DNA of 64,000 bases from an uncultured Anaerolineales bacterium (GTDB lineage Bacteria; Planctomycetota; Phycisphaerae; FEN-1346), in contig CAYWVR010000002.1 in the NCBI GenBank assembly GCA_964461715.1, forward strand, positions 76,453-140,452, given 5' to 3'. Positions within the stretch are counted from its first letter, which is position 1. Every line of letters begins with the position of its first letter. The notes below the pieces were generated by a model. The model saw only the letters and a program-made list of their open reading frames with translations. It did not search any database and was not told where the DNA came from. Shown here piece after piece: positions 5,239-40,856 of this stretch. The translations under genes were made by a program, and so were the position numbers.

Positions 5239-7434
5239 CTAAACGGCGCTTTCGATGCCGGTGATCTCCCAGGAGCGTTCTTCGCCGCCCAGGGCTAATT
5301 CCACCGTGTCGCCCACGGATTTGCCCATGAAGGCGAGGCCGAGGGGCGTCCGGTAGTAGTAGACGCCCTTCTCGACGTCCGAGTCCCACGGGCCCAGGAA
5401 CAAGAGCCGCTCTTCTTGCCCCGTGACACGATTGCGGGCCGTGACGGCCGATCCGACCGAGACCGTGTCCCCGCCGCCCATCCCGGGACGCATGACGCGG
5501 GCCTTCGCAAGGCCCTCCTGCATGGAGTTGGCGCGTTCGGTGAGGCGATCGCGTTCCTCCAGGGCGGCGGTCCACTCGGCGTTCTCCGACAGGTCGCCGT
5601 GGGCGGCCGCGTCGCCGATGGCCTTCGAGTTGGCGGGCAGCTTGACGCGGATGAGCTCGTCGAGCTTCTCCCGGCGCTCCCGAAAGGCCTCCTCGGTGGT
5701 GTAGAGGATATCCTCTTCCCACGCCGGGAGGACCTTCTCGGCATAGAGGGAGGGGTGGGCGGCCCGCAGCAGCTCCAGGACCTTCATACGGGCCATGTCC
5801 GTGAGCCCCGCGTTCCGCTCCGTGGCGATCCGCAGGGCCCGGCCCTGGCCGACCTCGGTGTCCTTGACGACGGTCGCCAGGGCCGCATAGTCCCGGGCCG
5901 AGAGCACCCGCTGGACGTCGGAAGCGGCCGTGCGGGCCATGGGACCGGTCGTCTCGTCGCTCCGGGCGAGGGCGTCGGCGACGTTGAGCAGGGCGATGGC
6001 CAGGGCGACCTGCTCGGACGCATCCAGCTCGACCGTCGCCACAGGCCCCGTCGCGGCCTTCCAGAGCCACACCAGGGCCCCCGGGGCCTCCGTCGGCCGC
6101 GCCGGCGCCTCCCGGGCCGCCTCGGCCAAACGGGCGTCGTGGCCGGCGTCGGCAAGGGCGTCGGCGATCCACTCGGCGACCGCCTGAGAGGCCCCCGGCA
6201 GCGTCTGTGCGTAGGTTTCCGGCCATTCGTCCGACCGGCGGCGGACGAACTCGAGGATCGTGCGGACGATGCGGTCGCTGAGGAACGCGTCCGCGAGGGT
6301 CGCCACGCGGTCCGGGTCGGGCACCGGGTCGCCCTCTTCCGGCTCCTCGCCCAGCCTCTGCCGCACGGCCGCCCGGACGGCCCGAATGGCCAGCGAAAGG
6401 GCCTCGTCGAGGCCTGCGGGGCCTTCGGCCATCCGCGTGAGGGTCTCGTCGAAGTACGCCAGAGCGGCCCGTTCGCCCTCGCTCTCCTCGCCGTGCTCGG
6501 CCAAGTGGGCGAGGACGGCGTCGAGGCGGTCGACGGGCTCCTCGGTGGCCTCGAAATCCCGGCGGACCTGGTCCTCGAAGGCCAGGGGCCGATCCCGGAG
6601 GATGAGTTCCGGCTTCGTTCCCCCGGTCATCTCGAGCTGGGGCGAGCGTTTGAGGGCCGGGAGGGTGGATTTCCACCACTTCGGCCAGGCCCCCCGCGGG
6701 ATGATCGGCGCCAGGGCCCGCCGAAGGTCGTCATACGGCATCCGCGGGCCCGCCGAGACGAGCACGCGCCGCACCAGCTCCGCCGGATCGGATTCGGCCA
6801 GGGCGGCCAGCCGGTCGGCGTCGAAGGCCATGACGGCGGTGAAATCGTCCGCCGGGAGCTTCTCCAGGGCGTCCACGCCTCGCGCATCGTAGGTCTTGCC
6901 GCTCTCGCCGAAGGAAACCTCCAGGCCCGGCCGGTCGGGATCGACGCGGACCACACGTCCGGGGCTCTTGCGGCGGGGATCGCGGACGTAGGTGCCGGGG
7001 GGGAGGGCCAGGAGCTTCTCGATCTGCTCGACGGCCCCTTCGAGAGGCATGTCGGCCTTCCCGAACGTCATCGAAACGAGGATTTCGATGCCCTCGGCGT
7101 CCGCACAGGCGGCCCGGTAGACCTCAGCGGCCTGGTCGCGGAGGGTAGGCCGGTCGGGCAGCAGGTCGGCGCACCATCGGGCCAGGTCGCGGGCCTCGGC
7201 GGGTCCCTGCCGCTCCAGCGTCTCGGAGAGGAGATACCAAGCGAGCGATTCGAGTGGCCGGGCGGCCTCCTTTTCCGCCAGGATCCGCAGCACCGCCACG
7301 CAGGCCGAGGGCGGGACGGCGTCGGACTCCAAGGCCTCCAGCCAGGCGGCCTCCAGGTCGTCATAGGCTTCCTGCTCCGCCAGGGCCGCCAGCGGGGCCG
7401 CTTCGGTCGGAAGGTCGGTATCGGCGTCGCTCAT
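5239..7434 (-). CDS. GreA/GreB-family transcript-cleavage factor domain fused to a ~550-aa acidic N-terminal extension of unknown function
   Basis: The C-terminal ~160 aa (…EKLDELIRVKLPANSKAIGDAAAHGDLSENAEWTAALEERDRL…VSVGSAVTARNRVTGQEERLLFLGPWDSDVEKGVYYYRTPLGLAFMGKSVGDTVEL…) is a complete GreA coiled-coil plus FKBP-like domain. The N-terminal 550 aa is Asp/Glu/Ala/Leu-rich with no recognised domain. Confidence 0.75.
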   Translation of the reverse strand: MSDADTDLPTEAAPLAALAEQEAYDDLEAAWLEALESDAVPPSACVAVLRILAEKEAARPLESLAWYLLSETLERQGPAEARDLARWCADLLPDRPTLRDQAAEVYRAACADAEGIEILVSMTFGKADMPLEGAVEQIEKLLALPPGTYVRDPRRKSPGRVVRVDPDRPGLEVSFGESGKTYDARGVDALEKLPADDFTAVMAFDADRLAALAESDPAELVRRVLVSAGPRMPYDDLRRALAPIIPRGAWPKWWKSTLPALKRSPQLEMTGGTKPELILRDRPLAFEDQVRRDFEATEEPVDRLDAVLAHLAEHGEESEGERAALAYFDETLTRMAEGPAGLDEALSLAIRAVRAAVRQRLGEEPEEGDPVPDPDRVATLADAFLSDRIVRTILEFVRRRSDEWPETYAQTLPGASQAVAEWIADALADAGHDARLAEAAREAPARPTEAPGALVWLWKAATGPVATVELDASEQVALAIALLNVADALARSDETTGPMARTAASDVQRVLSARDYAALATVVKDTEVGQGRALRIATERNAGLTDMARMKVLELLRAAHPSLYAEKVLPAWEEDILYTTEEAFRERREKLDELIRVKLPANSKAIGDAAAHGDLSENAEWTAALEERDRLTERANSMQEGLAKARVMRPGMGGGDTVSVGSAVTARNRVTGQEERLLFLGPWDSDVEKGVYYYRTPLGLAFMGKSVGDTVELALGGEERSWEITGIESAV

Positions 7435-14165: not shown

Positions 14166-14999
14166 ATGGCCGACGTGCAAGCGAGCTGGGACCCGGCCTA
14201 CGCCGGGATGGTCGAGCGCAACATCGGGCTTCTCAAGCCCGAGGAACAGGAACGCCTGCGGACGGCCCGCTGTGCGGTGTTCGGGACGGGAGGGCTCGGA
14301 GGGGTGGCCTTCGAGGTCCTCGTACGGAGCGGAGTGGGCCACTTCAACATCGTCGACAAGGACGCCTTCGACGCCTCCAACCTGAACCGCCAGATCCACG
14401 CCACTCGCAAGACGATCGGCCACGTCAAGGTCCAGGCCGCCCGCGAGCGAGCCCTCGAGATCAACCCCACCGTCGAGGTCGCCACCTGGGAGCGCGTCGA
14501 CGGGGAGACCGTCCGGGAGATCCTCCGCGGGGCCGACGTCGCCGTCCAGGCCATCGATACGCTGCGGGCGTCGCTCGTCCTGTCGCGGGCGGCCCGCGAG
14601 ATGGGCGTCCCGTTCGTCGAGGGATGGGCCATCCCCTTCCCGAATTGCCGCACCTTCACCGCCGAGACGCCGAGCCTCGAGGAAGCCTACGGTCTGCCGA
14701 CGGCGGATCGGGCCGTCTCGGACATCCCGGACGAGGAGATCCGGAAGCTCCAGACGAACCTCCTGTTCGGACTCGGGCAGATCGAAGGGGTGGGGGACTT
14801 CTACGATCAGGCCACGATCGACCGGATCGCCGCGGGACACCTCTCCTCGTTCGCCCCCATGGTCTGGGGCACGGCCGTGATGGTGGCCACCGAGGCCCTG
14901 AAGGTGCTGCTCGGCTGGGGTACGCTCGCCCTCGCTCCGCGCTTCGCGGTCTACGACCCGTACGAGCACCGGATGCCCGGGATCCTGCCCGCTCCTTAG
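14166..14999 (+). CDS. ThiF/MoeB/HesA-family E1-like nucleotidyltransferase (TcdA/CsdL-like small form)
   Basis: Rossmann GxGxxG (VFGTGGLGGVAFEVL) followed by IVDKDAFDASNLNRQIHA… No C-terminal CxxC zinc motif or rhodanese domain. From memory it resembles the TcdA subgroup. Confidence 0.7.
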   Translation: MADVQASWDPAYAGMVERNIGLLKPEEQERLRTARCAVFGTGGLGGVAFEVLVRSGVGHFNIVDKDAFDASNLNRQIHATRKTIGHVKVQAARERALEINPTVEVATWERVDGETVREILRGADVAVQAIDTLRASLVLSRAAREMGVPFVEGWAIPFPNCRTFTAETPSLEEAYGLPTADRAVSDIPDEEIRKLQTNLLFGLGQIEGVGDFYDQATIDRIAAGHLSSFAPMVWGTAVMVATEALKVLLGWGTLALAPRFAVYDPYEHRMPGILPAP

Positions 15000-15013
15000 G
15001 CCTTAGGACGCCG

Positions 15014-15895
15014 CTAGGCGGGCGAGATCTCGGTGGTATCGCCTCGGCAGACGGCCCGGAAGAGCGTCCCGCCCCATCGTTCCCGCAGCGCCGTCCGCTC
15101 GCGGTCCGTGAGCCGCGCGAGCAAGTCCAGGCGACCCGCCACCAGCTCTCGCAGGCGCATCGGGTCGCCGAAGGTGCGGCGGTTCATGATCTGCCAGAAA
15201 CGGGCGTAATCGACGTAGGGGTTGGCCTCCAGGAGCCACGAGACCAGGAACGCGCGCCGACCGAGCCGCCGATCGGCCTCGCGAGCCCGGTCGGCCAGGC
15301 AGGAGAGGCTGAGGCGCCGTCCCGTGGGCCGGTCGCCCCACGGCTCGAAAAGGACCACGGCGTCGAAGACCGTCCCGCCGCAGCCGCAGAAGAGGTCGTC
15401 GGCCCCGCCCGCAGCGGCGACGGCCGCGGCCGCCCGCGCCAGCTCCGCCCAGACGGGGAAGGCCGCATCAGGGGCCGCGCATCCGACCATCTCGGCCGCC
15501 TGCCGGCCCATGGAACGCAGGCACGCGAGAGCCCGGCCGAAGGGAGCGTCGCCCGGAAGACCGAACGTCACCGAGTCCCGCACCACGGCCAGGGCGGCGA
15601 CGGGCCGGTCGCCGATCTCGGCCATGAGGACGGCCGTCTCCTCCTGTGCCATGCGCACCGCCGACAGCGGGACGCCGCCGACCGTCTCCCAGCCCTTCGG
15701 GGGCGCGAGCAACAGCCGTCCCGCCGACGTCAGGTCCTCGGGGGTCACGGCCCGCCTGACGCGGAACCGTGTCGTGTCGTCTCCGCTAAGCCACGCGCGC
15801 CCGATCCTCGGGCTGCGTGCCAGATGTTCCATGCCGATCGGGATCATCGGAGGCCTCCATCGGTCCTTAGGCCGTCGGCGGCGATTCCGCGGCAC
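15014..15895 (-). CDS. FeeM/LuxI-like GNAT-fold N-acyltransferase paralogue A (full length; possible real start at MEHL, 15832)
   Basis: Shares the N-terminal block (…TRFRVRRAVTPEDL…AALAVV…) and the C-terminal ~50-aa block (…DPMRLRELVAGRLDLLARLTDRERTALRERWGGTLFRAV…) with paralogues B and C. The track start is GTG. Confidence 0.55.
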   Translation of the reverse strand: MPRNRRRRPKDRWRPPMIPIGMEHLARSPRIGRAWLSGDDTTRFRVRRAVTPEDLTSAGRLLLAPPKGWETVGGVPLSAVRMAQEETAVLMAEIGDRPVAALAVVRDSVTFGLPGDAPFGRALACLRSMGRQAAEMVGCAAPDAAFPVWAELARAAAAVAAAGGADDLFCGCGGTVFDAVVLFEPWGDRPTGRRLSLSCLADRAREADRRLGRRAFLVSWLLEANPYVDYARFWQIMNRRTFGDPMRLRELVAGRLDLLARLTDRERTALRERWGGTLFRAVCRGDTTEISPA

Positions 15896-16232
15896 ACATC
15901 ACTTGCGCGAACGTCGCGGGACCCCAGAAGGCCCGCAGCCAGTCGCGCTCTTGGCTCGTGGCACGGCCCAGGAGGCCGCTTTGCTCGATGAAGAGGCGCG
16001 CGAGAGCCCTCGGATCGTCGAAGAGATCGCCCGCCCGTTCGTTCCATTCGGCCACGGCAATGAAGGTGGCCATGTCGGGCGAGGCCTCGTCGACGCCAAG
16101 GACGGCCGCGCCCGCGGTCGTCTCGGCCACCAGATGGTGGGCCTCGCTCAGCTCATCGACGGTGAGGGCCCGGCGGATGGTTGTGCCGCGGGTGTCGGCA
16201 CCGAAGAGGCCGAGGCGCGTCAGGAGGGCCAT
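15867..16232 (-). CDS. FeeM/LuxI-like N-acyltransferase paralogue B: internally deleted mini-copy (~122 aa from MALLTRLGLF…), keeping only the N-terminal and C-terminal blocks
   Basis: MALLTRLGLFGADTRGTTIRRALTVDEL…MATFIAVAEW joins directly to …LFDDPRALARLFIEQSGLL…ERDWLRAFWGPATFAQV. The catalytic GNAT core present in paralogue C is missing. Possible longer starts exist at 16316 or 16472. Confidence 0.4.
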   Translation of the reverse strand: MALLTRLGLFGADTRGTTIRRALTVDELSEAHHLVAETTAGAAVLGVDEASPDMATFIAVAEWNERAGDLFDDPRALARLFIEQSGLLGRATSQERDWLRAFWGPATFAQVMCAAESPPTA

Positions 16233-16473
16233 CCGCCGCTCGACGCCTCCGGCGCGCGGCCGGCGCCGCGCGCGGCGGGACCGGGCGAGGTCCCGCTCCA
16301 GGGCCAGAAGGTCCATCCAGGAGGGTCGGGCGACGGACTGTGGGGGACGGGCCGCGGGAGAAAAGCCGGAGGGCGCCTGCCCTCGCGGGTCGGTCCCCAG
16401 CGGTCCCATCCGAATCCCCACGTCCTGTCCTTTCGGCGGTTGCGAGCGCGGCGGGCGGCGGGCCGAAGGCATC

Positions 16474-17382
16474 CTAGCACACCGGCACGGCCTGGCCCAC
16501 GTCCCCGGTCACGGCGGCAAAGGTCGCGTCACCCCAGGCCCCGCGGATGGCCTCGCGCTCGGGGCGCGTGCATCCGGGGATCAGGCCGCTGTCCTCGACG
16601 AAGAGCCGCCGGAGGGCCGACTGGTCGTCGAACAGCGTCCGGGCCTCGGCGTCCCACGCCTTGACCTGCTTGCGGTAGGGGTTGCTGACGAGGCAGCGAA
16701 TCTTGATGAAGAGGGTCGCGCTGTCGCTGTCGTCGTTGGCCTGCTCGGCCCGGGCGATCAACTCGGCGACGTTGACCCGCATCACGACCACCGGATCGTC
16801 GGTCTTGCGGGAGTAGCTGCGCACGTCGCTGACCTGCGTGAAGCCCAGGAGGTTGAAGAACCGGGCGTGGCCGGGGCTGACGGTAGTGATGAGTTCGTCG
16901 CATCCGACGGCCAGGCCGTGGGCGAACATGCACCGCATCAGCTCCGTGGGCACGGCGCTCTTGCGGTACTCGGGGGCAATGGCCTGGTTGGTGGCCTCGC
17001 AGACCCGCCGCCTGCCGACCCGAAGCTCGTCCAGCACGTCCTGGAACGCGTCGTCCGAGGGCAGCCCGAGATGCGGCCCGTCGACGGCCAGTCCCTGGAC
17101 GCCCACGACCTTTCCGTCGGCCACAGCGATGAAGGTGGCCATGGACGGCAGGGCCTCGAAGGGACGCATGCGGAGTCCGGTCGCCGTCGGCTGGATGTAG
17201 CCCTGCTCGGCGAACGCGTCGTGGACGAGCCGATAGCCCTGGATAAGGTCATCGTCGGTGACGGCTCGGCGGATGACGGCGCCGCGGGTGTCAGACCCGA
17301 ACAGACCGGCCCGCCTCAGCAGCGCCATCCGGCGCGAGGCCCGGGCCGATTCCGCGTCCCCCCTCCCCTTGTGGACCTTCAT
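16474..17382 (-). CDS. FeeM/LuxI-like GNAT-fold N-acyltransferase paralogue C (N-acyl amino acid synthase-like)
   Basis: Core …YRLVHDAFAEQGY…MATFIAVADGKVVGVQGLAV…RVCEATNQAIAPEYRKSAVPTELMRCMFAHGLAVGCDELITTVSPGHARFFNLLGF… matches the autoinducer-synthase/FeeM acyltransferase fold. A strong SD (AGGAGGGAG) lies 6 nt before the ATG at 17382. Confidence 0.6.
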   Translation of the reverse strand: MKVHKGRGDAESARASRRMALLRRAGLFGSDTRGAVIRRAVTDDDLIQGYRLVHDAFAEQGYIQPTATGLRMRPFEALPSMATFIAVADGKVVGVQGLAVDGPHLGLPSDDAFQDVLDELRVGRRRVCEATNQAIAPEYRKSAVPTELMRCMFAHGLAVGCDELITTVSPGHARFFNLLGFTQVSDVRSYSRKTDDPVVVMRVNVAELIARAEQANDDSDSATLFIKIRCLVSNPYRKQVKAWDAEARTLFDDQSALRRLFVEDSGLIPGCTRPEREAIRGAWGDATFAAVTGDVGQAVPVC

Positions 17383-31429: not shown

Positions 31430-33103
31430 ATGATCGAAGGCCGGACCATCCTGTGCTTTGCGAGCGGCTACGACGCCCCGCCCACAAGCAAGCACCACGT
31501 CATGCGCCGTCTGGCGGAGCGGAACGTCGTTCTCTGGGTCAACTACCACGCGTCGCGGGTCCCCTCGGCCGGCGCGTCGGACGCCGCCTACATCGTCGCC
31601 AAGCTCGGACAGGTGGCCGGGGGCCTTCGCCGGGCGCATCCGAACCTCTACGTCCTGACCCCCCTGGTCGTCCCTTTGCCCACCTCGCGCTTGGCGAGAG
31701 AGACGAATCGGATACTGCTGGTCATGCAGGTGCGGGCGGCGCTGGCGCGGGTCCGACAGGGGCCGCTCCAGGTCTGGTCCTTCGCCCCGGACGTTGCCTA
31801 TGCTCTGGACGCCTTCGACGCCGAGGCCGTCGTCTACTACTGTGTCGACGACTTCGCGTCGTTCTCCGGCTACGACCGCGGGCAGGTCCTGGCCGACGAG
31901 GAGACTCTCTGCCGCCGCGCCGACCTCGTCGTCACCACCAGCCGCGCGCTCCAGGACGCCAAGGCGCCGCTGAATCCGAACACGATCCTCGTGCCGCACG
32001 GCGTGGACTACGCTCACTTCGCGCGCGCAATCGAGAAGGACCTGCCGGTTCCCGAGGACCTGGCGGACATCCCGCACCCGGTCCTGGGATTCTTCGGGCT
32101 CATCCGCGACTGGGTGGACCTGGACCTCGTGGCCGAGGTGGCGCGGCGGCGGCCCGCGTGGCACGTCGTCCTGGTCGGCGATTCGACGGTGGATCTCACC
32201 CCGTACCGGGACTTGCCGAACCTGCATTTCGTCGGCCGCAAGCCCTACGAAGACCTCCCCGCCTGGTGCCGCCGCTTCGACGTCGGCCTTATCCCGTTCA
32301 AGATCAACGACCTGACGGAGGCCGTGAACCCGATCAAGCTTCGGGAGTACCTGGCAGCGGGTCTGCCCGTGCTTTCGACGCCGCTGCCGGAGGTCGTGGC
32401 CTGCGGCTTCCCGGTGCGCGTCGTCGAGGGCCCGGACGGCTTCGTGGGGGCGTGCGAGGCCGCGCTGGCCGAAGGCGCCGGCATCGAAGCCCGCCGATCT
32501 CGCTCGGCCCCCATGGCCGAGGAGACGTGGGACCGCAAGGTCGACCGGATCGCCGACCGCCTGATCGCCGCCGCGTCCGATCAGCCCGCGAGAGGGGCCG
32601 CGACACGGCGGCGCCGCGTCATGGTCGGCGTCGCGGGCGGGGGATTCGTCATCCAGTGCAAGAATCTCCTCCGCGCCTGCCCCGAGACGGTCGAGCTCCT
32701 CGTGACGGGTCCCGAGCACGCCGTGGCCCAGTACGACGCGTGGCGAGACCGATGGCTCTCGGACGACGGGTCGTGGTTCGCCACGCGCCAGCTCCGGAGC
32801 CACGGACGTCTCCAGTCCGCACTGGCGGCGGCCCTGGGGTCGTTACGGTGTCTGGAGCTGGTGTACGAGCACCGCCCGGACGCGGTCGTGGCAGTCGGGC
32901 ATCGCATCGCCGTCTTCCTGCTGGCAGCCGGACGGCTTCTCGGGACCCGGACGGCTTTCGTCGAGTGCATCACGCGGGTTCGGCGCCCGTCGCGGACCGG
33001 CCGGATCGTCTCGGGCCTCGGGCTGGCGGATCGTGTTTTCGTCCAGTGGCCACAGACCCGTCGCCTCTACCGGAGGGCCGTCTACGGCGGCCGCATCCTA
33101 TGA
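31430..33103 (+). CDS. GT4-family glycosyltransferase fused to a C-terminal Alg14-like (EpsE/Cps14F-type) membrane-anchoring domain
   Basis: An AAGG SD precedes the ATG. The N-terminal ~370 aa has the GT1 C-lobe (…VLGFFGLIRDWVDLDLV…HVVLVGD…FDVGLIPFKINDLTEAVNPIKLREYLAAGLPVLST…). The C-terminal ~170 aa (…VMVGVAGGGFVIQCKNLL…LLVTGPEH…PDAVVAVGHRIAVFLLAAGRLLG…FVECITRV…) is Alg14-like. Confidence 0.65.
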   Translation: MIEGRTILCFASGYDAPPTSKHHVMRRLAERNVVLWVNYHASRVPSAGASDAAYIVAKLGQVAGGLRRAHPNLYVLTPLVVPLPTSRLARETNRILLVMQVRAALARVRQGPLQVWSFAPDVAYALDAFDAEAVVYYCVDDFASFSGYDRGQVLADEETLCRRADLVVTTSRALQDAKAPLNPNTILVPHGVDYAHFARAIEKDLPVPEDLADIPHPVLGFFGLIRDWVDLDLVAEVARRRPAWHVVLVGDSTVDLTPYRDLPNLHFVGRKPYEDLPAWCRRFDVGLIPFKINDLTEAVNPIKLREYLAAGLPVLSTPLPEVVACGFPVRVVEGPDGFVGACEAALAEGAGIEARRSRSAPMAEETWDRKVDRIADRLIAAASDQPARGAATRRRRVMVGVAGGGFVIQCKNLLRACPETVELLVTGPEHAVAQYDAWRDRWLSDDGSWFATRQLRSHGRLQSALAAALGSLRCLELVYEHRPDAVVAVGHRIAVFLLAAGRLLGTRTAFVECITRVRRPSRTGRIVSGLGLADRVFVQWPQTRRLYRRAVYGGRIL

Positions 33104-33552
33104 TCCTCGTGACCGTGGGCACGACCTATTACGACGAGCTGGTGCGTGAGGTCGACCGGCTGGTGGTCGTCGGGGCCATCACCGAGCCGGTCTTCGCCCA
33201 GATCGGCATGGGGAAGTACGAGCCGCAGCACATGGAATGGACTCGCTACGTTGACCGTCTCGAGCCGCTCTATCGGGAGGCGAGCCTCGTCATCTGCCAC
33301 GGCGGCGTAGGGACGGTGTTCGAGCTGTTGGCGCTGGGGCGGCCGACGATCGCCGTCGCCAACCGGGCCCTCGCGGACGATCACCAGGCCGACCTGCTCC
33401 GCGCCATTGCCGGGCGAGGCTGGTGCACGTGCTGCTTCTCGCCGACCGAGCTCGAAGCGGCGCTCAAGACGCCCCGCCCGGCGATTCCCTATCCGGACGA
33501 GCCGGTCCTGGCAGGCCGCATCTGGGACTATCTGACCACCCCGAGGACGTGA
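33100..33552 (+). CDS. Alg13-like (EpsF/Cps14G-type, Glyco_tran_28_C) glycosyltransferase catalytic partner
   Basis: ATGA start/stop overlap with the upstream fusion gene. The sequence MILVTVGTTYYDELVREVDRL…ASLVICHGGVGTVFELLALGRPTIAVAN… is the Alg13/MurG-C-like fold. It lies immediately after the Alg14-like domain, as in Cps14F/G pairs. Confidence 0.7.
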   Translation: MILVTVGTTYYDELVREVDRLVVVGAITEPVFAQIGMGKYEPQHMEWTRYVDRLEPLYREASLVICHGGVGTVFELLALGRPTIAVANRALADDHQADLLRAIAGRGWCTCCFSPTELEAALKTPRPAIPYPDEPVLAGRIWDYLTTPRT

Positions 33553-33554
33553 CC

Positions 33555-35033
33555 ATGGACCTTCGGATGCACAAGGTGCCGGACTGGCCGAAGCTCGCCT
33601 GGGTCGCGCGCATGCGTCCCGGCGGCGCGGCCGTCGAGGCACTCCACGGCCCGTACGTGGAGCGCCGCCGGGACTGGTGCGTCGAGGCCGTGTGGGCGGG
33701 ACGCTTCGAGGAGGGCGACTTCGACCGGACGGACCTCGTCTTCGGAACGGGCGTTCGCCTCCGCGACGGCGTCGTCCGGTTCGTCAATGCGGGCACGGGG
33801 GTGGACCGCCTGTGGCACGTGGCCCACGAGGGCGGGTACGCTGTCAGCAACTCGCTGCCCGCGCTGCTGGCGGTGACGGGCCTGGCCCTCCGCGAGGACT
33901 ATACGGGCTACTCCGACGACATCCAGAGCGTCGAGGTGCGGGGCATCCGGCACTATGTCCGCGAGATTCCCTCGTCCGGGCCGCCCCTCGGCGTCCTTTA
34001 CTTCGACGACCTGGTCTATGACGGACGGACGCTCGTCGCGGCCGAGAAACCGAGCGTCGCCCCGCCCTTCCCGACCTTTGCCGCCTACGAGGCATTTCTC
34101 ATCGAGACGGCCCATGCCCTGGGCGAGAACAGCCGCGCGCGGGACCGCCGGTGGCCGGTGACCGGGATCGTCGGCGTCTCGTCGGGCTACGACTCGCCGG
34201 CCGTCGCCGTTGTCGCGCGGCACGCCGGATGCACGCGGGCGGTCACGATCCACCAGTCGCGGAGTCTCTGGCGGGGTCCGGACTCCGGGGAGCCCGTCGC
34301 GCGAGCCTTGGGGCTCCCGTGCGCCGTCTACGACCACAGCCCGCGGAACTATCGCCTGGAGCACGCCGTGTGGGCGGCCACGGGCCTGGCAGGCGGACTG
34401 AACCTCACGCTTTTCGACTACCCGGAGCCGCTGGCCATGTTCTACAGCGGCAGCTACGGCGACAAGGTCTGGGACCGGCGCCCGCACGACCTCTCGGAGC
34501 CGGTGGGCGACCGCGACCACCTGCTGGGCGAGTTCCGGCTGATCCAGGGGCTCTTCCAGTGCGTCGTCCCCTGGTGGGGCATTCACCGCGCCGGCGAGAT
34601 CAACGCCCTCGGCGCCCGCGAGGAGATGGCCCCGTGGACCCTCGGCAACTCCTACGATCGGCCGGTTGCCCGGCGGTTGGCGGAGGAGGCGGGGATCCCG
34701 CGCAAGGCCTTCGGCATCCGCAAGAAGGACACCTCCTCGAACGTGTCCTTCCTCTGGCCGCGCACGCGCGAGGCGCAGGCCCGCTTCGCGCGGTGGCTCC
34801 GAGACCGGGGCCTGGAGGCGCCGAGCCGGGCGCGCGTGGGCCTCTTCCGGAAGCTCGCCAAGCTCGAGGGGCTCATCTACTACAACCTCCCCGCGAAGCT
34901 GCGCCCCAAGCGGCGCCTCCGGCCGTGGCTGCGCCTGGCAGGGACCCGGCGGCTCTTTCAGTGGGGCAACGAGGAACTGAAGGCCGTCTATGCGGCCGGC
35001 CTGGACGCCTTTCGGCGAGAGGCATCTCCGTGA
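33555..35033 (+). CDS. asparagine-synthetase-like PP-loop (SGGxDS-type) protein lacking the N-terminal glutaminase Cys; paralogue 1
   Basis: 492 aa. …PVTGIVGVSSGYDSPAVAVVARHAG… is a degenerate PP-loop ATP-pyrophosphatase motif placed about 230 aa from the N-terminus, as in AsnB. The N-terminus is MDLRM…, with no Cys2 nucleophile. Confidence 0.5.
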   Translation: MDLRMHKVPDWPKLAWVARMRPGGAAVEALHGPYVERRRDWCVEAVWAGRFEEGDFDRTDLVFGTGVRLRDGVVRFVNAGTGVDRLWHVAHEGGYAVSNSLPALLAVTGLALREDYTGYSDDIQSVEVRGIRHYVREIPSSGPPLGVLYFDDLVYDGRTLVAAEKPSVAPPFPTFAAYEAFLIETAHALGENSRARDRRWPVTGIVGVSSGYDSPAVAVVARHAGCTRAVTIHQSRSLWRGPDSGEPVARALGLPCAVYDHSPRNYRLEHAVWAATGLAGGLNLTLFDYPEPLAMFYSGSYGDKVWDRRPHDLSEPVGDRDHLLGEFRLIQGLFQCVVPWWGIHRAGEINALGAREEMAPWTLGNSYDRPVARRLAEEAGIPRKAFGIRKKDTSSNVSFLWPRTREAQARFARWLRDRGLEAPSRARVGLFRKLAKLEGLIYYNLPAKLRPKRRLRPWLRLAGTRRLFQWGNEELKAVYAAGLDAFRREASP

Positions 35034-36448
35034 CACTTGATGCCGAGCTGATGATCGACCAGTTTATCCTGGGCCGGGACGCCGACGCGATCCCGGACGG
35101 GTGGCCCGTGCGCGCTCACGACGGCCGGCGTCTCGGCCATCACCCTCATCTGCCCGTCGCGGAGATCACCGACGGCGAGGGGACGTTCCTCGGCTGGCTC
35201 CTCGGTTGGGCCGTCGGTCCGGACGGCCGGATGGTGCGGAAGAAAGCCGTCTTCAAACAGGCTTTCGAGGCGGCGGTCGCCGAGCACGGGGGGCGCTTCG
35301 CCGCGGTGCGCTTTGCGCCGTCGGGCCCACGTTTCTACCTGGGTCCGTGCGGAGCGTTGGCGGCGGTGTACTCGCGCGAGCGAGAGGTCGTGGCGTCCTC
35401 GCTCTACATGATTCCGGGGGCGCGCGACGCCGAGACGCGCTTGATGCCCGAGCTGGGTGTGCCGGAGAGCGACCACTTCTACCCCTTCGGCCTCACCCCC
35501 CGCCGGGGGATCGAGCGACTGATCCCGCACCACTACCTCGACCTCGCGACCTGGCAGCCCGTGCGCCACTGGCCCGCCGGCGACATCCCCGAGACGCGGG
35601 ACGTCGACGCGACCGGCGAGGCGATCGGGGCGCTCGTCGAGCGGCAGATCGCGGGCGTCATCAAGGCCGACGGACCGATCTACATGTCGCTGACCGCGGG
35701 CCGGGACTCGCGGCTGATGGCGGCCTGCGCGCGGGACCATGCCGCGCACGTCACCTTCTTCACGATGATCGTACCGAGCGAGGGAGGGCGGCTGGATCGG
35801 CAGGCCGCTCGGAAGCTGGCCCGGCGCTGCGGCCTGGACCACCTCGTTCTGCCGCGCAAGACCCCCACAGAGGCCGACAAGCGCCTTCACATGCAGCGCA
35901 CAGGCGATTGCGTAGGCTCATGGCAAAACCTGGCGACGATGGGGCAACTGCCCGAGCGGCGTCCCGTGCTCCTCGGCATGGCCGGCGAGTTGGGCCGGGG
36001 GTTCCACTGGAGACGCGGTGACACCGAATCGAGCCGGATCACGCCCGCCGATCTCCTCGATCGCCGTGGCTTGCCGCACACGCGCGCCATCCTGGACCGC
36101 GCCGAGGCGTGGCTCGCCGGCGTGCCGGCAACCAACGCCCTGACCATCTGGGGCCTCTACTACCTGGAGCAGTACCTGGGGTGCTGGAGCGGACCGGCTC
36201 AGTACAACCCGCACAACGGGTGTTACCGCCTGTCGCCGTACTGCCATCGCGAGATTCACCAAGCCATGATGAGCCTGCCCCGGGAGTATCGCCTCCGCTG
36301 CCGCCTCGAGGACGACCTCGTCGGTCGGCGGTGGCCGGAGATGCTGACCGTCCCGTTCAACTGGCCGATGGGTCTGGGGCGCTACGTCGCGTTCCTGAAG
36401 CGGCGTGCGGGGAAGCTGGTGGGCAAACTCGGCGCGACCGACGCCTAG
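35030..36448 (+). CDS. asparagine-synthetase-like PP-loop protein; paralogue 2
   Basis: GTG start overlaps the upstream stop (GTGA). …DGPIYMSLTAGRDSRLMAACARDHAA… is a PP-loop-like motif at the equivalent position. The overall architecture parallels paralogue 1, and there is no N-terminal Cys. Confidence 0.5.
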   Translation: MTLDAELMIDQFILGRDADAIPDGWPVRAHDGRRLGHHPHLPVAEITDGEGTFLGWLLGWAVGPDGRMVRKKAVFKQAFEAAVAEHGGRFAAVRFAPSGPRFYLGPCGALAAVYSREREVVASSLYMIPGARDAETRLMPELGVPESDHFYPFGLTPRRGIERLIPHHYLDLATWQPVRHWPAGDIPETRDVDATGEAIGALVERQIAGVIKADGPIYMSLTAGRDSRLMAACARDHAAHVTFFTMIVPSEGGRLDRQAARKLARRCGLDHLVLPRKTPTEADKRLHMQRTGDCVGSWQNLATMGQLPERRPVLLGMAGELGRGFHWRRGDTESSRITPADLLDRRGLPHTRAILDRAEAWLAGVPATNALTIWGLYYLEQYLGCWSGPAQYNPHNGCYRLSPYCHREIHQAMMSLPREYRLRCRLEDDLVGRRWPEMLTVPFNWPMGLGRYVAFLKRRAGKLVGKLGATDA

Positions 36449-36461
36449 ACGGATAGAGACG

Positions 36462-38030
36462 ATGCCGGAACTCGTGGATAAGACGCCAACCGAGGTCCCG
36501 CCCGGGGCCGCGGCCGCCAAGCCCGCCGGGGGCGTGAGCAGCCGGGAGCTGACCCGTTCGGCCGGCCGCGGGGCCCTGTGGCAGTTCGCCGGCGCGGGAT
36601 GGATGACGCTTGTCCAGCTCGGATCAAGCGCGGTTCTGGCACGCGTGCTCTTCCCGGAGGACTTCGGCCTCTTGGGAATGGCCCTTTTGGGCCACGCCCT
36701 GATCCGGCGGCTCGGGACCCTGGGGACGACGGCGGGCCTCATCGCGAAGGTGGACGTGACGGAGGACGACCTCTCGACCGCCTTCTGGACGACGTTCGCC
36801 GTGCAGGGGGCGCTCTTCGGGGTCGCGGTGGCGGCGGCGCCGCTGGCGGCCCTCTTCTTCGACACACCGGAGGTCACGTGGGTGATGCGGGCCGTGGCCT
36901 TGACGTTCGTGCTGACGGCGCTGGGGGCCGTGCCGGGCGCGATCCTGCGGAAAAAGCTTCGTTTCGGGGCCCTGAAGATCATCGAGTGCGGCGGCGCGAT
37001 GCTCCAGGCGGGCCTGGCCATCCTTTTCGCGGTGGTCTACGACATGAACTACTGGGCCTTGGTGGCCGGGATGCTGATCTCGGAGGCGTGCCAGGGGGTG
37101 GCGACGCTCATCCTGGCCCGGTGGCGGCCGAGCCTGAGGTTCCGGCGGGAGAGCTTCCGGTACATGTTCCGCTTCGGCTACAACGAGTTCGGCTCGGAGC
37201 TGGCGGGGTATTTCCACCACAACATCGACTATCTGCTGGTGGGCCGGCTACTGGGGCCGGCGCTGCTGGGCCTCTATGAGTTCGCCTACCGCATACCGCA
37301 CATGATCGTGAACCGGCTGGCGATGCCCGTCGGCCGGGTGCTCTTCCCGTCGCTGGCGAAGATCCAGTCCGACAACGCGAGGCTGGCGAAGGGCTACACG
37401 AAGTGCGCCCAGTACGTCTCGATCGCCGTCTTTCCGCTGATGACGGGGTTGGCGGTGCTGGCGCGGCCGACCGTGCTCGTCCTCTGGGGCGAGAAGTGGG
37501 TAGACGCCATTCTTCCGCTGCAGATCCTGTGCGGCAGCGCCGCGGTGCGGTCGGCCCTTTCAGGAGTCGGCACAATCTTCCTCTGCAAGAACCGCCCGGA
37601 CATCCCCCTCAAGTTCAGCCTGGCGACGCTGGCGTTCACCTTTGCGGCCGTGGCCACCCTGGGTTACTTCTTCGGGATGGTGGGCGTGGCGACAGGCATG
37701 CTGGTATCCCTGGCCCCGTACGTGATCTACCTTGGGCTGGCCTTCCGGATGGTCGATACACCGGTGCGGCAGTTCTTCGCCGCCCTGGGCCCGGTCGTGC
37801 TGTGCGCGGCGGTCTGCGGCCTGGCGGCGTGGGGGACGATGCGCCTGGTGTGCCTCGCGGAAGGGCCGGATTACGTGATTCTGCTGGCCGCGGTGCCGGC
37901 GGGCGCGGCGGCCTACGCGGCCGGCATGCGCCTGCTGTATCCGAAGCTGGTGGCGGACGTGTGGGAGACGGCGCGCGTCGTCCTCGGACGCCGATCGAGC
38001 GAAGCCGTGGCGGAGGAACAAGCGCCGTGA
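36462..38030 (+). CDS. Wzx-type oligosaccharide-lipid flippase (MOP/PST family polysaccharide biosynthesis protein)
   Basis: About 12 predicted TM helices. The conserved PST N-terminal region is …SAGRGALWQFAGAGWMTLVQLGSSAVLARVLFPEDFGLLGMAL… Length 522 aa. Confidence 0.75.
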   Translation: MPELVDKTPTEVPPGAAAAKPAGGVSSRELTRSAGRGALWQFAGAGWMTLVQLGSSAVLARVLFPEDFGLLGMALLGHALIRRLGTLGTTAGLIAKVDVTEDDLSTAFWTTFAVQGALFGVAVAAAPLAALFFDTPEVTWVMRAVALTFVLTALGAVPGAILRKKLRFGALKIIECGGAMLQAGLAILFAVVYDMNYWALVAGMLISEACQGVATLILARWRPSLRFRRESFRYMFRFGYNEFGSELAGYFHHNIDYLLVGRLLGPALLGLYEFAYRIPHMIVNRLAMPVGRVLFPSLAKIQSDNARLAKGYTKCAQYVSIAVFPLMTGLAVLARPTVLVLWGEKWVDAILPLQILCGSAAVRSALSGVGTIFLCKNRPDIPLKFSLATLAFTFAAVATLGYFFGMVGVATGMLVSLAPYVIYLGLAFRMVDTPVRQFFAALGPVVLCAAVCGLAAWGTMRLVCLAEGPDYVILLAAVPAGAAAYAAGMRLLYPKLVADVWETARVVLGRRSSEAVAEEQAP

Positions 38031-38097: not shown

Positions 38098-39477
38098 ATG
38101 ACGCCACGCGTCTCATCCCGAGACGACGTCCGACGTCGCCGCCCCAAGGGTGCGCGCCCTCATGTCTGCATGTTCGTCAACAACCCGGGCCTGCGGGACC
38201 CGCGCGTGACGCGTGAGGCCGAGGTCGCGGTCGAGGCGGGATTCGACGTGACGGTCGTCGCCTGCCAGAACCACGACGAGGACGGTCCGACGCGCGTCCT
38301 CCAGCGGGGCGTGGAGTTCCTGCGGCCCAAGGTCGGGTCCAGCCGTCTGGCCGGGGCCTTGAGGCACGTCCTCGGCCTCCGCCGGACGTTCTCCGCATCG
38401 CCGGCCGCGCCCCGCGAGGCGTCTCCGTCCGCAGACGCGTCGGCGACGGCCGCGGAAAAGGCAAGGCCCAGTCTGATGCGTCGCCTGCACGGATGGGGAT
38501 GGGGATGGCGGCGGACGCTGGTCAGCCTCGGCCAACGGATTCGTCTCGGCCTTGCCGTGTCGGCCGACGCCTACCATGCGCACGACTGCGACACCCTTCC
38601 GATCGCGTGGCTCTGCGCGCGCCTGCGCGGGAAACCCTTCATCTACGACTCGCACGAACTCTGGGTCGATTGGAAACGGATGCGCGGGGCCGGCCGATGG
38701 CGCCTCGCACTTTGGAGGGCGCTCGAAGCGACCTTCTGCCGGCAGAGCGCCCTATGCGTGACGGTCAGCGAGGGACTGGCGGAGATTCTGCGGCGCGAAC
38801 TGGGCTTGAGGCGACTGGCCGTGGTCCGGAACTGCGCCCGGCGGCCGCGGGCGCTCCCGACGGACACCCACCTCGCCGGCCGCGCCCAGGTCCGGGCGGA
38901 GCTGGGCCTCGGGCCCGACGCGCCGGTCACGATCTATCAGGGCGGCCTGTGGCCCTACCGGGGACTGGAGACGCTGATCCGTGCCGCGACGCACGTGCCG
39001 AAGGTCTCGGTCCTCATCGTCGGCCCGATCACACCGTACGCGGAGTCGCTCCGCGCCCTGTCGATCGAGCACCGTGCGGCCAACGTCCGCTTCCTGGGCC
39101 ACCAGCCGGAGGAGCGGCGGTCGGCGCTGATGGGCGCGGCCGACCTGGGAGTCGTCCTGATCCAGGACGGAGGGTTGTCGTACCGGCACTCCTTTGCCAA
39201 CAAGAACGGCGAGTACTTCGCGCACGGCCTTCCGGTCCTGGCGTCGGACCTGCCGGAGCATCGTCGGGTGCTGATGCGTGTGGGCGCAGCCCTGCTCGCC
39301 GACCCGGAGTCGGCGTCCGACGTGGCGGCCAAGATACAGGCATTCTTCAGGATGACGAAAGCCCAGCGGCGCGGGCTCGCCGCCCTCGCCCGGTCCTTTG
39401 TGGACCGGGAGCTGAACATGGACGTGCAGTTCCGCCCCGTCCTAGACTTCTATCTGGCCCTCGGGCGGAACCGGTGA
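38098..39477 (+). CDS. GT4-family glycosyltransferase (tandem paralogue 1)
   Basis: GT1 C-lobe motifs (…IYQGGLWPYRGLETLIRA…VLIVGP…FLGHQPEE…ADLGVVLIQD…NKNGEYFAHGLPVLASD…). The N-terminal 175 codons are near-identical to the next gene at DNA level. Confidence 0.8.
   Translation: MTPRVSSRDDVRRRRPKGARPHVCMFVNNPGLRDPRVTREAEVAVEAGFDVTVVACQNHDEDGPTRVLQRGVEFLRPKVGSSRLAGALRHVLGLRRTFSASPAAPREASPSADASATAAEKARPSLMRRLHGWGWGWRRTLVSLGQRIRLGLAVSADAYHAHDCDTLPIAWLCARLRGKPFIYDSHELWVDWKRMRGAGRWRLALWRALEATFCRQSALCVTVSEGLAEILRRELGLRRLAVVRNCARRPRALPTDTHLAGRAQVRAELGLGPDAPVTIYQGGLWPYRGLETLIRAATHVPKVSVLIVGPITPYAESLRALSIEHRAANVRFLGHQPEERRSALMGAADLGVVLIQDGGLSYRHSFANKNGEYFAHGLPVLASDLPEHRRVLMRVGAALLADPESASDVAAKIQAFFRMTKAQRRGLAALARSFVDRELNMDVQFRPVLDFYLALGRNR
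38164..38678. repeat. ~515-bp direct repeat, copy 1 (≥99% identical to 39552-40066)
   Basis: Direct comparison of the two stretches gave only two mismatches (gtgacg/gtaacg and gaact/gagct) over ~515 bp. Flanking sequence on both sides is diverged. Confidence 0.8.
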
Positions 39478-39482
39478 CGGAC

Positions 39483-40856
39483 ATGACCTCGAGTCGCTCA
39501 ACATGCCGCGACACCGTCGTGGAGGCGATCGCCCGCCCCGCGCGCGTGCGCGTCTGCATGTTCGTCAACAACCCGGGCCTGCGGGACCCGCGCGTAACGC
39601 GTGAGGCCGAGGTCGCGGTCGAGGCGGGATTCGACGTGACGGTCGTCGCCTGCCAGAACCACGACGAGGACGGTCCGACGCGCGTCCTCCAGCGGGGCGT
39701 GGAGTTCCTGCGGCCCAAGGTCGGGTCCAGCCGTCTGGCCGGGGCCTTGAGGCACGTCCTCGGCCTCCGCCGGACGTTCTCCGCATCGCCGGCCGCGCCC
39801 CGCGAGGCGTCTCCGTCCGCAGACGCGTCGGCGACGGCCGCGGAAAAGGCAAGGCCCAGTCTGATGCGTCGCCTGCACGGATGGGGATGGGGATGGCGGC
39901 GGACGCTGGTCAGCCTCGGCCAACGGATTCGTCTCGGCCTTGCCGTGTCGGCCGACGCCTACCATGCGCACGACTGCGACACCCTTCCGATCGCGTGGCT
40001 CTGCGCGCGCCTGCGCGGGAAACCCTTCATCTACGACTCGCACGAGCTCTGGGTCGATTGGAAACGCATGGGCGGCGTGGGTCGCGTACCCGTCGCCCTC
40101 TGGGAGATGGCCGAGCGGGCGTTCGTCCGGCAGGCCGCCGCGTGCGTGACGGTCAGCGAGGACATGGCGGCGTTGCTGAAGCGCCGCCATAGCCTCGGCT
40201 GCATGCTCGTCGTCCGGAACTGTCCCCGCCGAGGGACCTCGGAAGCGACCGTGCCGCGCGACGTCGCCCGCCGGGCGTGCGGCATCGAGAACGGCCAGCG
40301 GATCGTCCTCTACCAGGGCGGCCTTTGGGCGAACCGCGGACTCGACGTCCTGGTCGAGAGCGCCCGGCACGTCCCGGAGGTGGACGTTCTGCTCGTGGGG
40401 CGGCTCAATTCGTACGGGGCCGGGCTCCAGCAGATCCGTCGCGACCTGGGCTGCCGCAACGTCCGTTTCCTGGGCCACAGGGACGAGGCCGAGCGCAACG
40501 CCTTGATGGCCGCGGCGGACCTGGGCGTCGTCCTGACGCAGGACCGCTCGCTCTCATATCGGCTGACCCTGTCAAACAAGATCTTCGAGTACTTCGCGAA
40601 CGGGCTGCCCGTGCTGGCGTCGGACCTGCCGCCCCACCGGCGGATTGAGGCGCAGACGGGCGCCTGCCGGCTCACGAATCCGGAGGACGCGGTGATTCTG
40701 GCCGAGGACATCCGCCGCTTCTTCTCGATGGACGAAACCGGTCGGCGCCGGATGGGCGAGCGGGCCCGCCGCGCCGCCCTCGACCAACTCAACATGGAAC
40801 GCCAGATGACCCCGCTCCTCGAACTCTACCGCGGCGTCGCGCGGATCGGGCGATAG
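39483..40856 (+). CDS. GT4-family glycosyltransferase (tandem paralogue 2)
   Basis: Same architecture as the preceding gene. The 3' two-thirds are diverged (…LYQGGLWANRGLDVLVESA…LLVGR…FLGHRDEAE…ADLGVVLTQD…NKIFEYFANGLPVLASD…). Confidence 0.8.
   Translation: MTSSRSTCRDTVVEAIARPARVRVCMFVNNPGLRDPRVTREAEVAVEAGFDVTVVACQNHDEDGPTRVLQRGVEFLRPKVGSSRLAGALRHVLGLRRTFSASPAAPREASPSADASATAAEKARPSLMRRLHGWGWGWRRTLVSLGQRIRLGLAVSADAYHAHDCDTLPIAWLCARLRGKPFIYDSHELWVDWKRMGGVGRVPVALWEMAERAFVRQAAACVTVSEDMAALLKRRHSLGCMLVVRNCPRRGTSEATVPRDVARRACGIENGQRIVLYQGGLWANRGLDVLVESARHVPEVDVLLVGRLNSYGAGLQQIRRDLGCRNVRFLGHRDEAERNALMAAADLGVVLTQDRSLSYRLTLSNKIFEYFANGLPVLASDLPPHRRIEAQTGACRLTNPEDAVILAEDIRRFFSMDETGRRRMGERARRAALDQLNMERQMTPLLELYRGVARIGR
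39552..40066. repeat. ~515-bp direct repeat, copy 2
   Basis: See copy 1; the offset between copies is exactly 1388 bp. Confidence 0.8.

Follow-up and report, generated by a model that had tools for sequence, protein, structure and literature searches.

We analysed a 64,000-nucleotide stretch (hereafter the window) of contig CAYWVR010000002.1 (positions 76,453 to 140,452, assembly GCA_964461715.1) from an uncultured Anaerolineales bacterium, placed by GTDB in the Phycisphaerae (FEN-1346) of the Planctomycetota. It contains two adjacent genes on the + strand, here called A (ATG at 33555 to TGA at 35033, 492 aa) and B (GTG at 35030 to TAG at 36448, 472 aa). We consider it evenly balanced, for and against, that their products are glutamine-independent, adenylate-forming amide synthetases which modify a polysaccharide, as two separate glutaminase-dead members of the asparagine synthetase B (AsnB) superfamily. 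Amide formation without glutamine is suggested by the fold, by the adenylation residues retained in A, and by the position of both genes in an operon, between glycosyltransferases and a flippase.

Gene calls and the loss of the glutaminase

The G+C content of the window is ~70%, so long spurious open reading frames (ORFs) are plentiful, and the real genes were chosen by third-position GC and homology. Proteins identical to the gene calls A (P0062, 492 aa) and B (P0001, 472 aa) were present in public collections, from four metagenome contigs. The two genes overlap by 4 nt (GTGA, 35030-35033, + strand, read from the sequence as the stop of A and the start of B), which indicates translational coupling, and a Shine-Dalgarno-like GAGG string was found ahead of each. 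Pseudogenes or chance ORFs are unlikely here, both families being strongly conserved and the models confident. Both proteins are basic (pI 9.5 for A and 9.1 for B). No transmembrane segment was detected in A or B, and a search for a membrane anchor or amphipathic C-terminal helix revealed no hydrophobic segment and no outstanding hydrophobic moment.

A and B keep a two-domain architecture, composed of an N-terminal domain of the N-terminal nucleophile (Ntn) type and a C-terminal PP-loop synthetase domain. A sequence-only reading of this DNA had described both as AsnB-like proteins without the obligatory Cys2, and no nucleophile Cys was found at either N-terminus: A starts MDLRMHKVPDWPKL and B starts (V->M)TLDAELMIDQF. 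The homologues share these N-termini, aligning at residue 1 of A and of B, and in the best-scoring full-length representatives of family A the match begins at profile position ~1. An upstream start that could supply an MCG N-terminus was looked for and ruled out for both genes. Upstream of A, the same reading frame encodes no Cys and runs into the Alg13-like gene; the only upstream 'LCG' in frame with B is 14 codons away, inside gene A, and its Leu is encoded by CTA, which is not a start codon.

The missing nucleophile is as that reading had it, but the loss is larger. With AsnB residues numbered from Cys1, residue 1 of A aligns with AsnB residue ~82 in hhalign against an AsnB-superfamily profile, and the Cys1 strand and the Arg49 and Asn74-Glu76 elements are missing; A is therefore an N-terminally truncated Cys-less protein without the first ~80 residues of the glutaminase (Ntn) domain. 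B is a full-length Cys-less AsnB-fold protein in which the AsnB Cys1 position corresponds to Glu6, a variable Glu/Asp column of the profile alignment. Opposite AsnB Asn74-Gly75-Glu76, in an alignment of low identity, only the Gly of B is matched (invariant G59), with Leu and Trp at the Asn74 and Glu76 positions. Neither A nor B keeps the set of glutamine-pocket residues compared (Arg49, Asn74-Gly75-Glu76 and Asp98); what Cys-1, Arg48/Asn74/Gly75/Glu76/Asp96 and the active-site Lys do is described for human asparagine synthetase (ASNS) and AS-B (PMC6748925).

What remains of the N-domain of A is well conserved, with the motifs WAGxFxxGDFDRTDLVFGTG, GVDRLW and SNSLPALL and the invariant residues E36, E44, W47, D57, R68, D84 and N99. 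The conserved N-domain motifs of B are GGRFAAV, YLDPCGSLAAVY and AST. The motifs of both proteins align with AsnB GMFAFA, RDxxGxxPLY and ASE. The missing Cys and the absent or substituted glutamine-site residues indicate that both A and B have lost glutaminase function.

Homology to AsnB and state of the synthetase site

The curated models scarcely reach the two proteins. A gave no Pfam or NCBIfam match at E<=10, and B scored 20.3 bits against Pfam Asn_synthase PF00733 (gathering score 21) and 24.9 bits against TIGR01536 (cut-off 267.1). Against PDB sequences nothing was found with the single sequences of A and B or with the family-A profile (28 sequences), and the family-B profile found only marginal PP-loop matches, to NAD synthetase and QueC (E 0.16-0.9). 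The AsnB-superfamily profile was composed of E. coli AsnB, five canonical MCG-type AsnB and thirteen diverged AsnB-like ORFs, the latter being neighbours of A-family genes in other genomes. Compared with this profile by hhalign, family B matched with Prob 99.5% and E 1.9e-22, and family A with Prob 91.5% and E 1.1e-7. The match of A became significant only once the Cys-less AsnB-like ORFs from related loci had joined the target profile; against a canonical-only AsnB profile, the global alignment was uninformative and the local one weak (E 0.007). Through these profile comparisons the homology of A and B to AsnB is established, though far below the reach of the curated models, and both proteins are predicted to have the AsnB fold with their PP-loops in register, which agrees with the sequence-only reading.

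Compared with AsnB and human ASNS (PDB 1ct9, 6gq3; TIGR01536, PF00733), A and B have no Cys1, are ~60-80 aa shorter than AsnB and score under every curated cut-off; the glutamine-binding region is gone in A and substituted in B, and the Glu348 position is not conserved. Among known structures the closest neighbours were beta-lactam synthetase (BLS; PDB 1jgt/1mbz) and carbapenam synthetase (CarA; PDB 1q15), in both of which the Cys-less AsnB fold is common with A and B. The listed values, in two columns that carry no label, are 22.5 / 16.6 for BLS, 22.4 / 15.5 for carbapenam synthetase, 20.0 / 13.7 for TsnB9, 19.3 / 14.8 for E. coli AsnB and 18.4 / 14.5 for human ASNS. Like these neighbours, A and B might be intramolecular cyclases, forming a lactam on an amino-acid-bearing sugar or small molecule, but we regard this as very unlikely. 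All of them have lost the glutaminase site, which probably accounts for the structural ranking, and the identity is only 12-17%. The truncated N-domain also sets A apart from BLS and CarA. BLS and CarA have a catalytic Lys, and B has no conserved lysine at this position. The features that define BLS (the Tyr348/Glu382 dyad, Lys443 and a clavam/carbapenem cluster) are not shared as a set: the genes lie in an exopolysaccharide operon instead of a beta-lactam pathway, and no clavam or carbapenem genes were found in the window.

The degenerate SGGxDS-type motif, which had been read about 230 residues into each protein, was located at residues 209-215 of A and 222-228 of B. It is conserved across each family and is not a chance string. 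Conservation was counted over 28 family-A and 27 family-B sequences. In A, the loop variant S209-S-G-Y-D-S214 (34179-34196, + strand; the string SSGYDSP, residues 209-215, spans 34179-34199) aligns with AsnB S234-GGLD-S239 in the hhalign register, with S209, G211, Y212 and D213 conserved in 28/28 and S214 in 26/28. The segment G299-S-Y-G-D303 (34449-34463, + strand) was aligned by hhalign with AsnB G347-E348-G-S-D351 of the ribose and Mg site (G299 26/28, G302 28/28, D303 26/28). A lysine, K390 (34722-34724, + strand), stands in the motif R-K-K-[DN]-T-S-S in all 28 sequences; hhalign placed R389-K390-K391 of A on R447-Q448-K449 of AsnB, and K390 is the predicted equivalent of AsnB Lys449 within one alignment position. 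The corresponding Lys466 of human ASNS, which is Lys449 in AsnB and is essential in AS-B, contacts the phosphate of acyl-AMP (PMC6748925). Given the conserved loop, the Gly/Asp motif and K390, A looks like a competent adenylate-forming enzyme.

In B, the loop variant T222-A-G-R-D-S227 followed by R228 (TAGRDSR, residues 222-228; 35693-35713, + strand) is equally well kept, with T222, G224 and R228 in 27/27, D226 in 26/27 and A223 in 25/27. The TAGRDS loop aligns with AsnB SGGLDS and also with the PP-loops of NAD synthetase and QueC, and G316-M-A-G-E320 was aligned with AsnB G347-E348-G-S-D351. The loops SSGYDS and TAGRDS both differ from the canonical SGGxDS consensus: Ser/Thr1, Gly3, Asp5 and Ser6 are kept in both families and Gly2 is replaced. 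Both families also retain the Gly and the acidic Mg-site position, but not the Glu348 position (Ser/variable in A).

The catalytic lysine is the point at which B differs. No lysine was found among the invariant or >=90% conserved columns of family B, a result independent of the AsnB alignment. At or next to the AsnB Lys449 position, B has N444 (36359-36361, + strand; 25/27) in a conserved P-F-N-W-P motif, and in hhalign B has a gap opposite the AsnB segment WRQKE. By its sequence, B keeps a nucleotide-type loop but departs from every characterised relative at the catalytic lysine. Its PP-loop, G316/E320 and many Arg residues are invariant. The mean column identity of the two families is 55% and 41%, which indicates strong purifying conservation of both.

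The two genes had also been described as a tandem pair, but they are not recent paralogues. No BLASTP similarity was found between A and B, and hhalign gave a marginal match (E 0.03) with the PP-loops in register. Recent tandem duplication was rejected on these results, which point to two separate, anciently diverged families.

Operon, gene neighbourhoods and the proposed reaction

The operon order is GT1-Alg14 fusion, Alg13-like gene, A, B and Wzx, with all junctions overlapping or near-abutting. Upstream lie a GT1-type glycosyltransferase fused to an Alg14/PssD-like domain (31430-33103, + strand; Pfam Glyco_trans_1_4 and Alg14; public gene call), of which the NCBIfam PssD, WelK and TuaH matches are all far below cut-off, and an Alg13/PssE-like Glyco_tran_28_C protein (33100-33552, + strand; Pfam PF04101), whose gene shares an ATGA overlap with the fusion gene and stops 2 nt before A. 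A Wzx-type flippase (Polysacc_synt_3; 36462-38030, + strand; Pfam PF13440, 241 bits; public gene call) begins 13 nt after B. From this layout we predict that A and B share a transcript with the glycosyltransferases and the flippase, and that translation of these genes is coupled. The region 31430-33552 is itself an unusual split/fusion form of a two-component glycosyltransferase, in which the Alg14/PssD-like domain sits at the C-terminus of a TuaH-like GT1 protein and the Alg13/PssE-like partner is separate.

The surrounding ~40 kb is identified by its gene content as an XrtA/PEP-CTERM exopolysaccharide locus, and the exosortase setting claimed from the letters alone was thereby borne out. The FemAB-family XrtA-associated protein (pepcterm_femAB, 325 bits, cut-off 260) and the TIGR03087 glycosyltransferase (404 bits, cut-off 317) exceed their cut-offs; 21 kb away from A and B, Pfam identified an exosortase-EpsI fusion (57873-59546). 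Pfam further revealed a PEP-CTERM protein, several GT4/GT2 genes, a Wzy-type polymerase and an ATP-grasp protein. A polysaccharide export protein, a chain-length determinant, a PEP-CTERM-system ATPase and a tyrosine autokinase were matched by NCBIfam models below cut-off. The cassette with A and B sits downstream of FemAB, the stp1 glycosyltransferase and one further glycosyltransferase.

The presence of an exosortase and a PEP-CTERM protein in the locus raises the question of protein-directed ligases of the exosortase system, which would form, for example, isopeptide links on PEP-CTERM proteins or join protein to polysaccharide. Lasso-peptide and macrolactam cyclases (NF033535, NF033561) offer a precedent: like the proposed A and B, they are adenylate-forming members of the AsnB superfamily that make an amide with an amine of the substrate and use no glutamine-derived ammonia. 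We judge this possibility highly improbable. Neither A nor B matched NF033535 even at E<=10 (this model does appear among the matches of related paralogues), and the cyclase HMMs (hidden Markov models) gave no match; no precursor peptide or leader peptidase was found nearby. The genes are tightly linked to glycosyltransferases and Wzx whereas the exosortase is distant, and the two families also occur in loci where no exosortase homologue was detected within 10 kb (L005, L006 and L061 of the loci fetched from other genomes). Lasso-type and beta-lactam-type roles are both unlikely, the genomic context being unsuited to them.

Family A is large. A word-indexed search gave 276 matches, and an exhaustive HMM scan of 1.84 billion representatives gave 2,226 clusters (defined at 50% identity) at E<=1e-3 and 1,141 at E<=1e-30; for family B the word-indexed search gave 61 matches. 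In a GTDB-wide scan family A was found in Planctomycetota, Anaerolineales, Desulfobacterota, Gemmatimonadota, Pontibacter, Sphingomicrobium, Arenicellales, Bryobacterales, Actinomycetes and Armatimonadota, the nearest genome relative being planctomycetal and 58% identical, and it occurs in polysaccharide loci of at least eight phyla. No Pfam or NCBIfam model covers family A. The source annotations read 'hypothetical protein', 'asparagine synthase-related protein' (B, Nostoc) or 'Asparagine synthetase domain-containing protein' (A, Desulfuromonas acetoxidans), and a literature search found no paper on family A or family B.

HMMs of the superfamily and of the two families were run over all fetched loci. 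The block A-B-Wzx was seen again in two unrelated metagenome contigs, L004, where it is downstream of exosortase, EpsI, a deacetylase, FemAB, stp1 and a glycosyltransferase, and L063. A is followed by B also in L058 and L040, and B by Wzx in L004, L061 and L063. In Nostoc sp. FACHB-152 (L061) B stands alone before Wzx and a pyruvyl transferase, and in L062 it stands alone in an exosortase locus; no A-family gene was found within 10 kb of B in these two. Most of ~55 loci have A but not B, A being either alone or accompanied by other paralogues.

These arrangements bear on whether A and B form an obligate heterodimer, with B as a catalytically dead scaffold or substrate-presenting subunit. AsnB, BLS and CarA are oligomers. 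The GTGA overlap, the A-then-B order shared by the window, L004, L063, L058 and L040, and the altered PP-loop and missing conserved Lys of B would all fit such a complex. We nevertheless consider it improbable, as each family is found without the other, and the invariance of the PP-loop, G316/E320 and many Arg residues of B is what a working ligand site would show. The earlier suggestion that one protein is a pseudo-enzyme partner of the other is thus weakly supported: the lack of a conserved lysine in B speaks for it, and the separate occurrence of B (L061, L062) and of A (most loci) speaks against it. B probably works as an enzyme in its own right rather than merely as a silent subunit of A.

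At least one other AsnB-superfamily gene was found within ~3 kb of family A in roughly 32 of ~57 loci; in the remaining loci A is alone, several of those contigs being truncated. The partners of A include B, one or two additional A paralogues (commonly so in Gemmatimonadota), a canonical MCG AsnB passing TIGR01536 (L038, L041, L043, L059), and AsnB-like proteins of ~600 aa, which fall into two types and carry canonical SGG[FQL]DS loops (L009, L010, L012-L015, L020, L022, L051). The first type starts M-[TS]-K-I-C-G and has an SGGQDS loop (L010, L012, L014, L015, L020, L022, L051; for example L012:11338-13248); its Cys at position 5 may be a glutaminase Cys behind a 4-residue propeptide, or belong to an inactive glutaminase. 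The second type starts MK[LIV]A.CF (one protein starts MPGVFG), has an SGGFDS loop and is often on the other side of A. None of these paralogues reaches the cut-off of TIGR03108 (816.9 bits), and the M-[TS]-K-I-C-G type is far below the TIGR01536 cut-off too. In many A loci the AsnB-like cassette follows the stp1 glycosyltransferase and a TuaH/Alg14-type glycosyltransferase, as in the window.

CapK_C-type (phenylacetate-CoA-ligase-like) genes were found no more than 10 kb from family A/B genes in four unrelated loci (L004, L005, L006 and L063). L004 also contains an arginase-family gene, and in L061 and L063 the pyruvyl transferase comes directly after Wzx. Such neighbours may be clues to the acid and amine substrates.

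Canonical XrtA loci carry an amidotransferase near the FemAB, stp1 glycosyltransferase and glycosyltransferase genes, and NCBIfam holds a dedicated model, TIGR03108 'XrtA/PEP-CTERM system amidotransferase'. This enzyme and other AsnB-type sugar amidotransferases have superfamily and locus type (XrtA-type exopolysaccharide cluster) in common with A and B, but TIGR03108 members are ~630 aa and neither A nor B matches the model at E<=10. A glutaminase elsewhere, which the sequence-only reading had advised to look for, was not detected in the window: no other AsnB or GATase ORF was found with the AsnB-superfamily HMM (filters off, all ORFs >=60 aa), nor any glutaminase or AsnB in Pfam scans of ~45 ORFs, and a canonical Gln-hydrolysing amidotransferase is absent from all 64 kb. 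Since AsnB-type synthetase domains can use NH3 directly, A and/or B could stand in for the canonical Gln-dependent XrtA enzyme and convert a sugar carboxylate (such as a uronic acid) into a primary amide with free cytoplasmic NH3. The position of the cassette downstream of FemAB, stp1 and a further glycosyltransferase is consistent with this. We rate it as rather unlikely, because it leaves unexplained the need for two very different proteins and, if the remodelled N-domain of A has no ligand, the strong conservation of that domain. Moreover, Gemmatimonadota loci hold A-type genes together with a canonical Gln-dependent AsnB passing TIGR01536, and this argues against A as a simple replacement of the canonical enzyme.

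For the glutamine-independent amide synthetases that we propose, A would bind ATP at the SxGYDS loop and adenylate a carboxylate, in the manner of BLS, CarA and the lasso-peptide cyclases, with Lys390 acting on the phosphate and Asp303 taking part from the Mg-site position of the alignment. An amine not derived from glutamine hydrolysis, which may be free ammonia, an amino acid or another amine, would then attack the acyl adenylate to give the amide, AMP and PPi. Because of the operon position, the carboxylate would most likely be on the cytoplasmic sugar repeat unit or its acidic substituent, before flipping by Wzx. B probably still binds a nucleotide (TAGRDS-R loop, Gly316/Glu320); since the catalytic lysine of every characterised family member is missing, it would be a variant enzyme with Arg residues in the lysine role, or one with modified, non-canonical chemistry.

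Several points weigh against this proposal. B may be incapable of adenylation, as it does not have the lysine that is essential in AsnB. The residue equivalences were read from profile alignments of low identity (13-16%) and not from structural superposition. Pfam scans of the window ORFs revealed neither a UDP-sugar dehydrogenase nor any other gene that would clearly supply an acidic sugar, and the Alg13/14-PssDE link to glucuronic acid depends on sub-threshold NCBIfam matches (PssD, WelK and TuaH); the substrate, like the activity, is therefore a prediction. The M-T-K-I-C-G paralogues beside A in many loci may also permit an inter-subunit hand-over of ammonia for the family generally.

A more specific proposal, possible though doubtful, makes both families glutamine-independent glycan carboxylate-amine ligases. 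The lipid-linked repeat unit would be adenylated on a carboxyl group (of a uronic acid, a pyruvyl ketal or similar), which would then be joined to an amino acid or another amine. On this view B would be the first AsnB-fold enzyme to do without an active-site lysine that is otherwise universal, and the recurrent arrays of 2-4 different AsnB-like paralogues would build multi-step amide decorations.

Other features of the window and significance of the families

Two GT4 glycosyltransferase genes stand in tandem (38098-39477 and 39498-40856), with identical N-terminal ~175 aa. Their DNA is 98% identical between 38152-38451 and 39540-39839, but the C-terminal halves are far more diverged and the overall identity is 66%. 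The pair is a mosaic tandem duplication or the product of gene conversion, or possibly an assembly artefact. At the far end, the region 57873-64000 contains the exosortase-EpsI/DUF3485 fusion (558 aa) and, after it, a TPR-rich ORF (>1,490 aa) that is cut off by the end of the window.

In the first part of the window, a ThiF-family E1-like gene (14166-14996, + strand) has as neighbours, on the other strand, two genes for FeeM-type N-acyl amino acid synthases (15014-15892 and 16474-17379), and this set at 14166-17379 may be an exosortase-associated acyltransferase set. The gene at 20588-21493 (- strand) encodes a Peptidase_C39-like domain and a C-terminal PEP-CTERM sorting motif in one protein, and adjoins a Bac_transf priming sugar transferase gene (22380-23033, - strand). 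A 730-aa protein encoded at 5239-7431 (- strand) has GreA/GreB N- and C-terminal domains confined to its last ~155 residues, with a ~575-aa N-terminal extension that has no Pfam match.

Family A spans Planctomycetota, Chloroflexota, Desulfobacterota, Gemmatimonadota, Bacteroidota, Proteobacteria, Actinomycetota and Armatimonadota, and as no Pfam or NCBIfam model exists for its proteins they are annotated as 'hypothetical'. Placed in the AsnB superfamily as glutaminase-dead, probably adenylate-forming enzymes, they and the proteins of family B acquire a function that can be tested, in exopolysaccharide and floc-forming (PEP-CTERM) loci of which they are a common part without annotation. The placement also points to amide-type decoration of exopolysaccharides. 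The N-substituted uronamides of Wzx/Wzy-dependent polysaccharides have, to our knowledge, no assigned enzymes in most cases, and the carboxylate-amine ligase proposal, if true, would account for them. The lysine-less active site of B is of interest to the enzymology of AsnB, BLS and CarA. The finding extends a known theme, the reuse of AsnB scaffolds without glutamine, and does not overturn current understanding.

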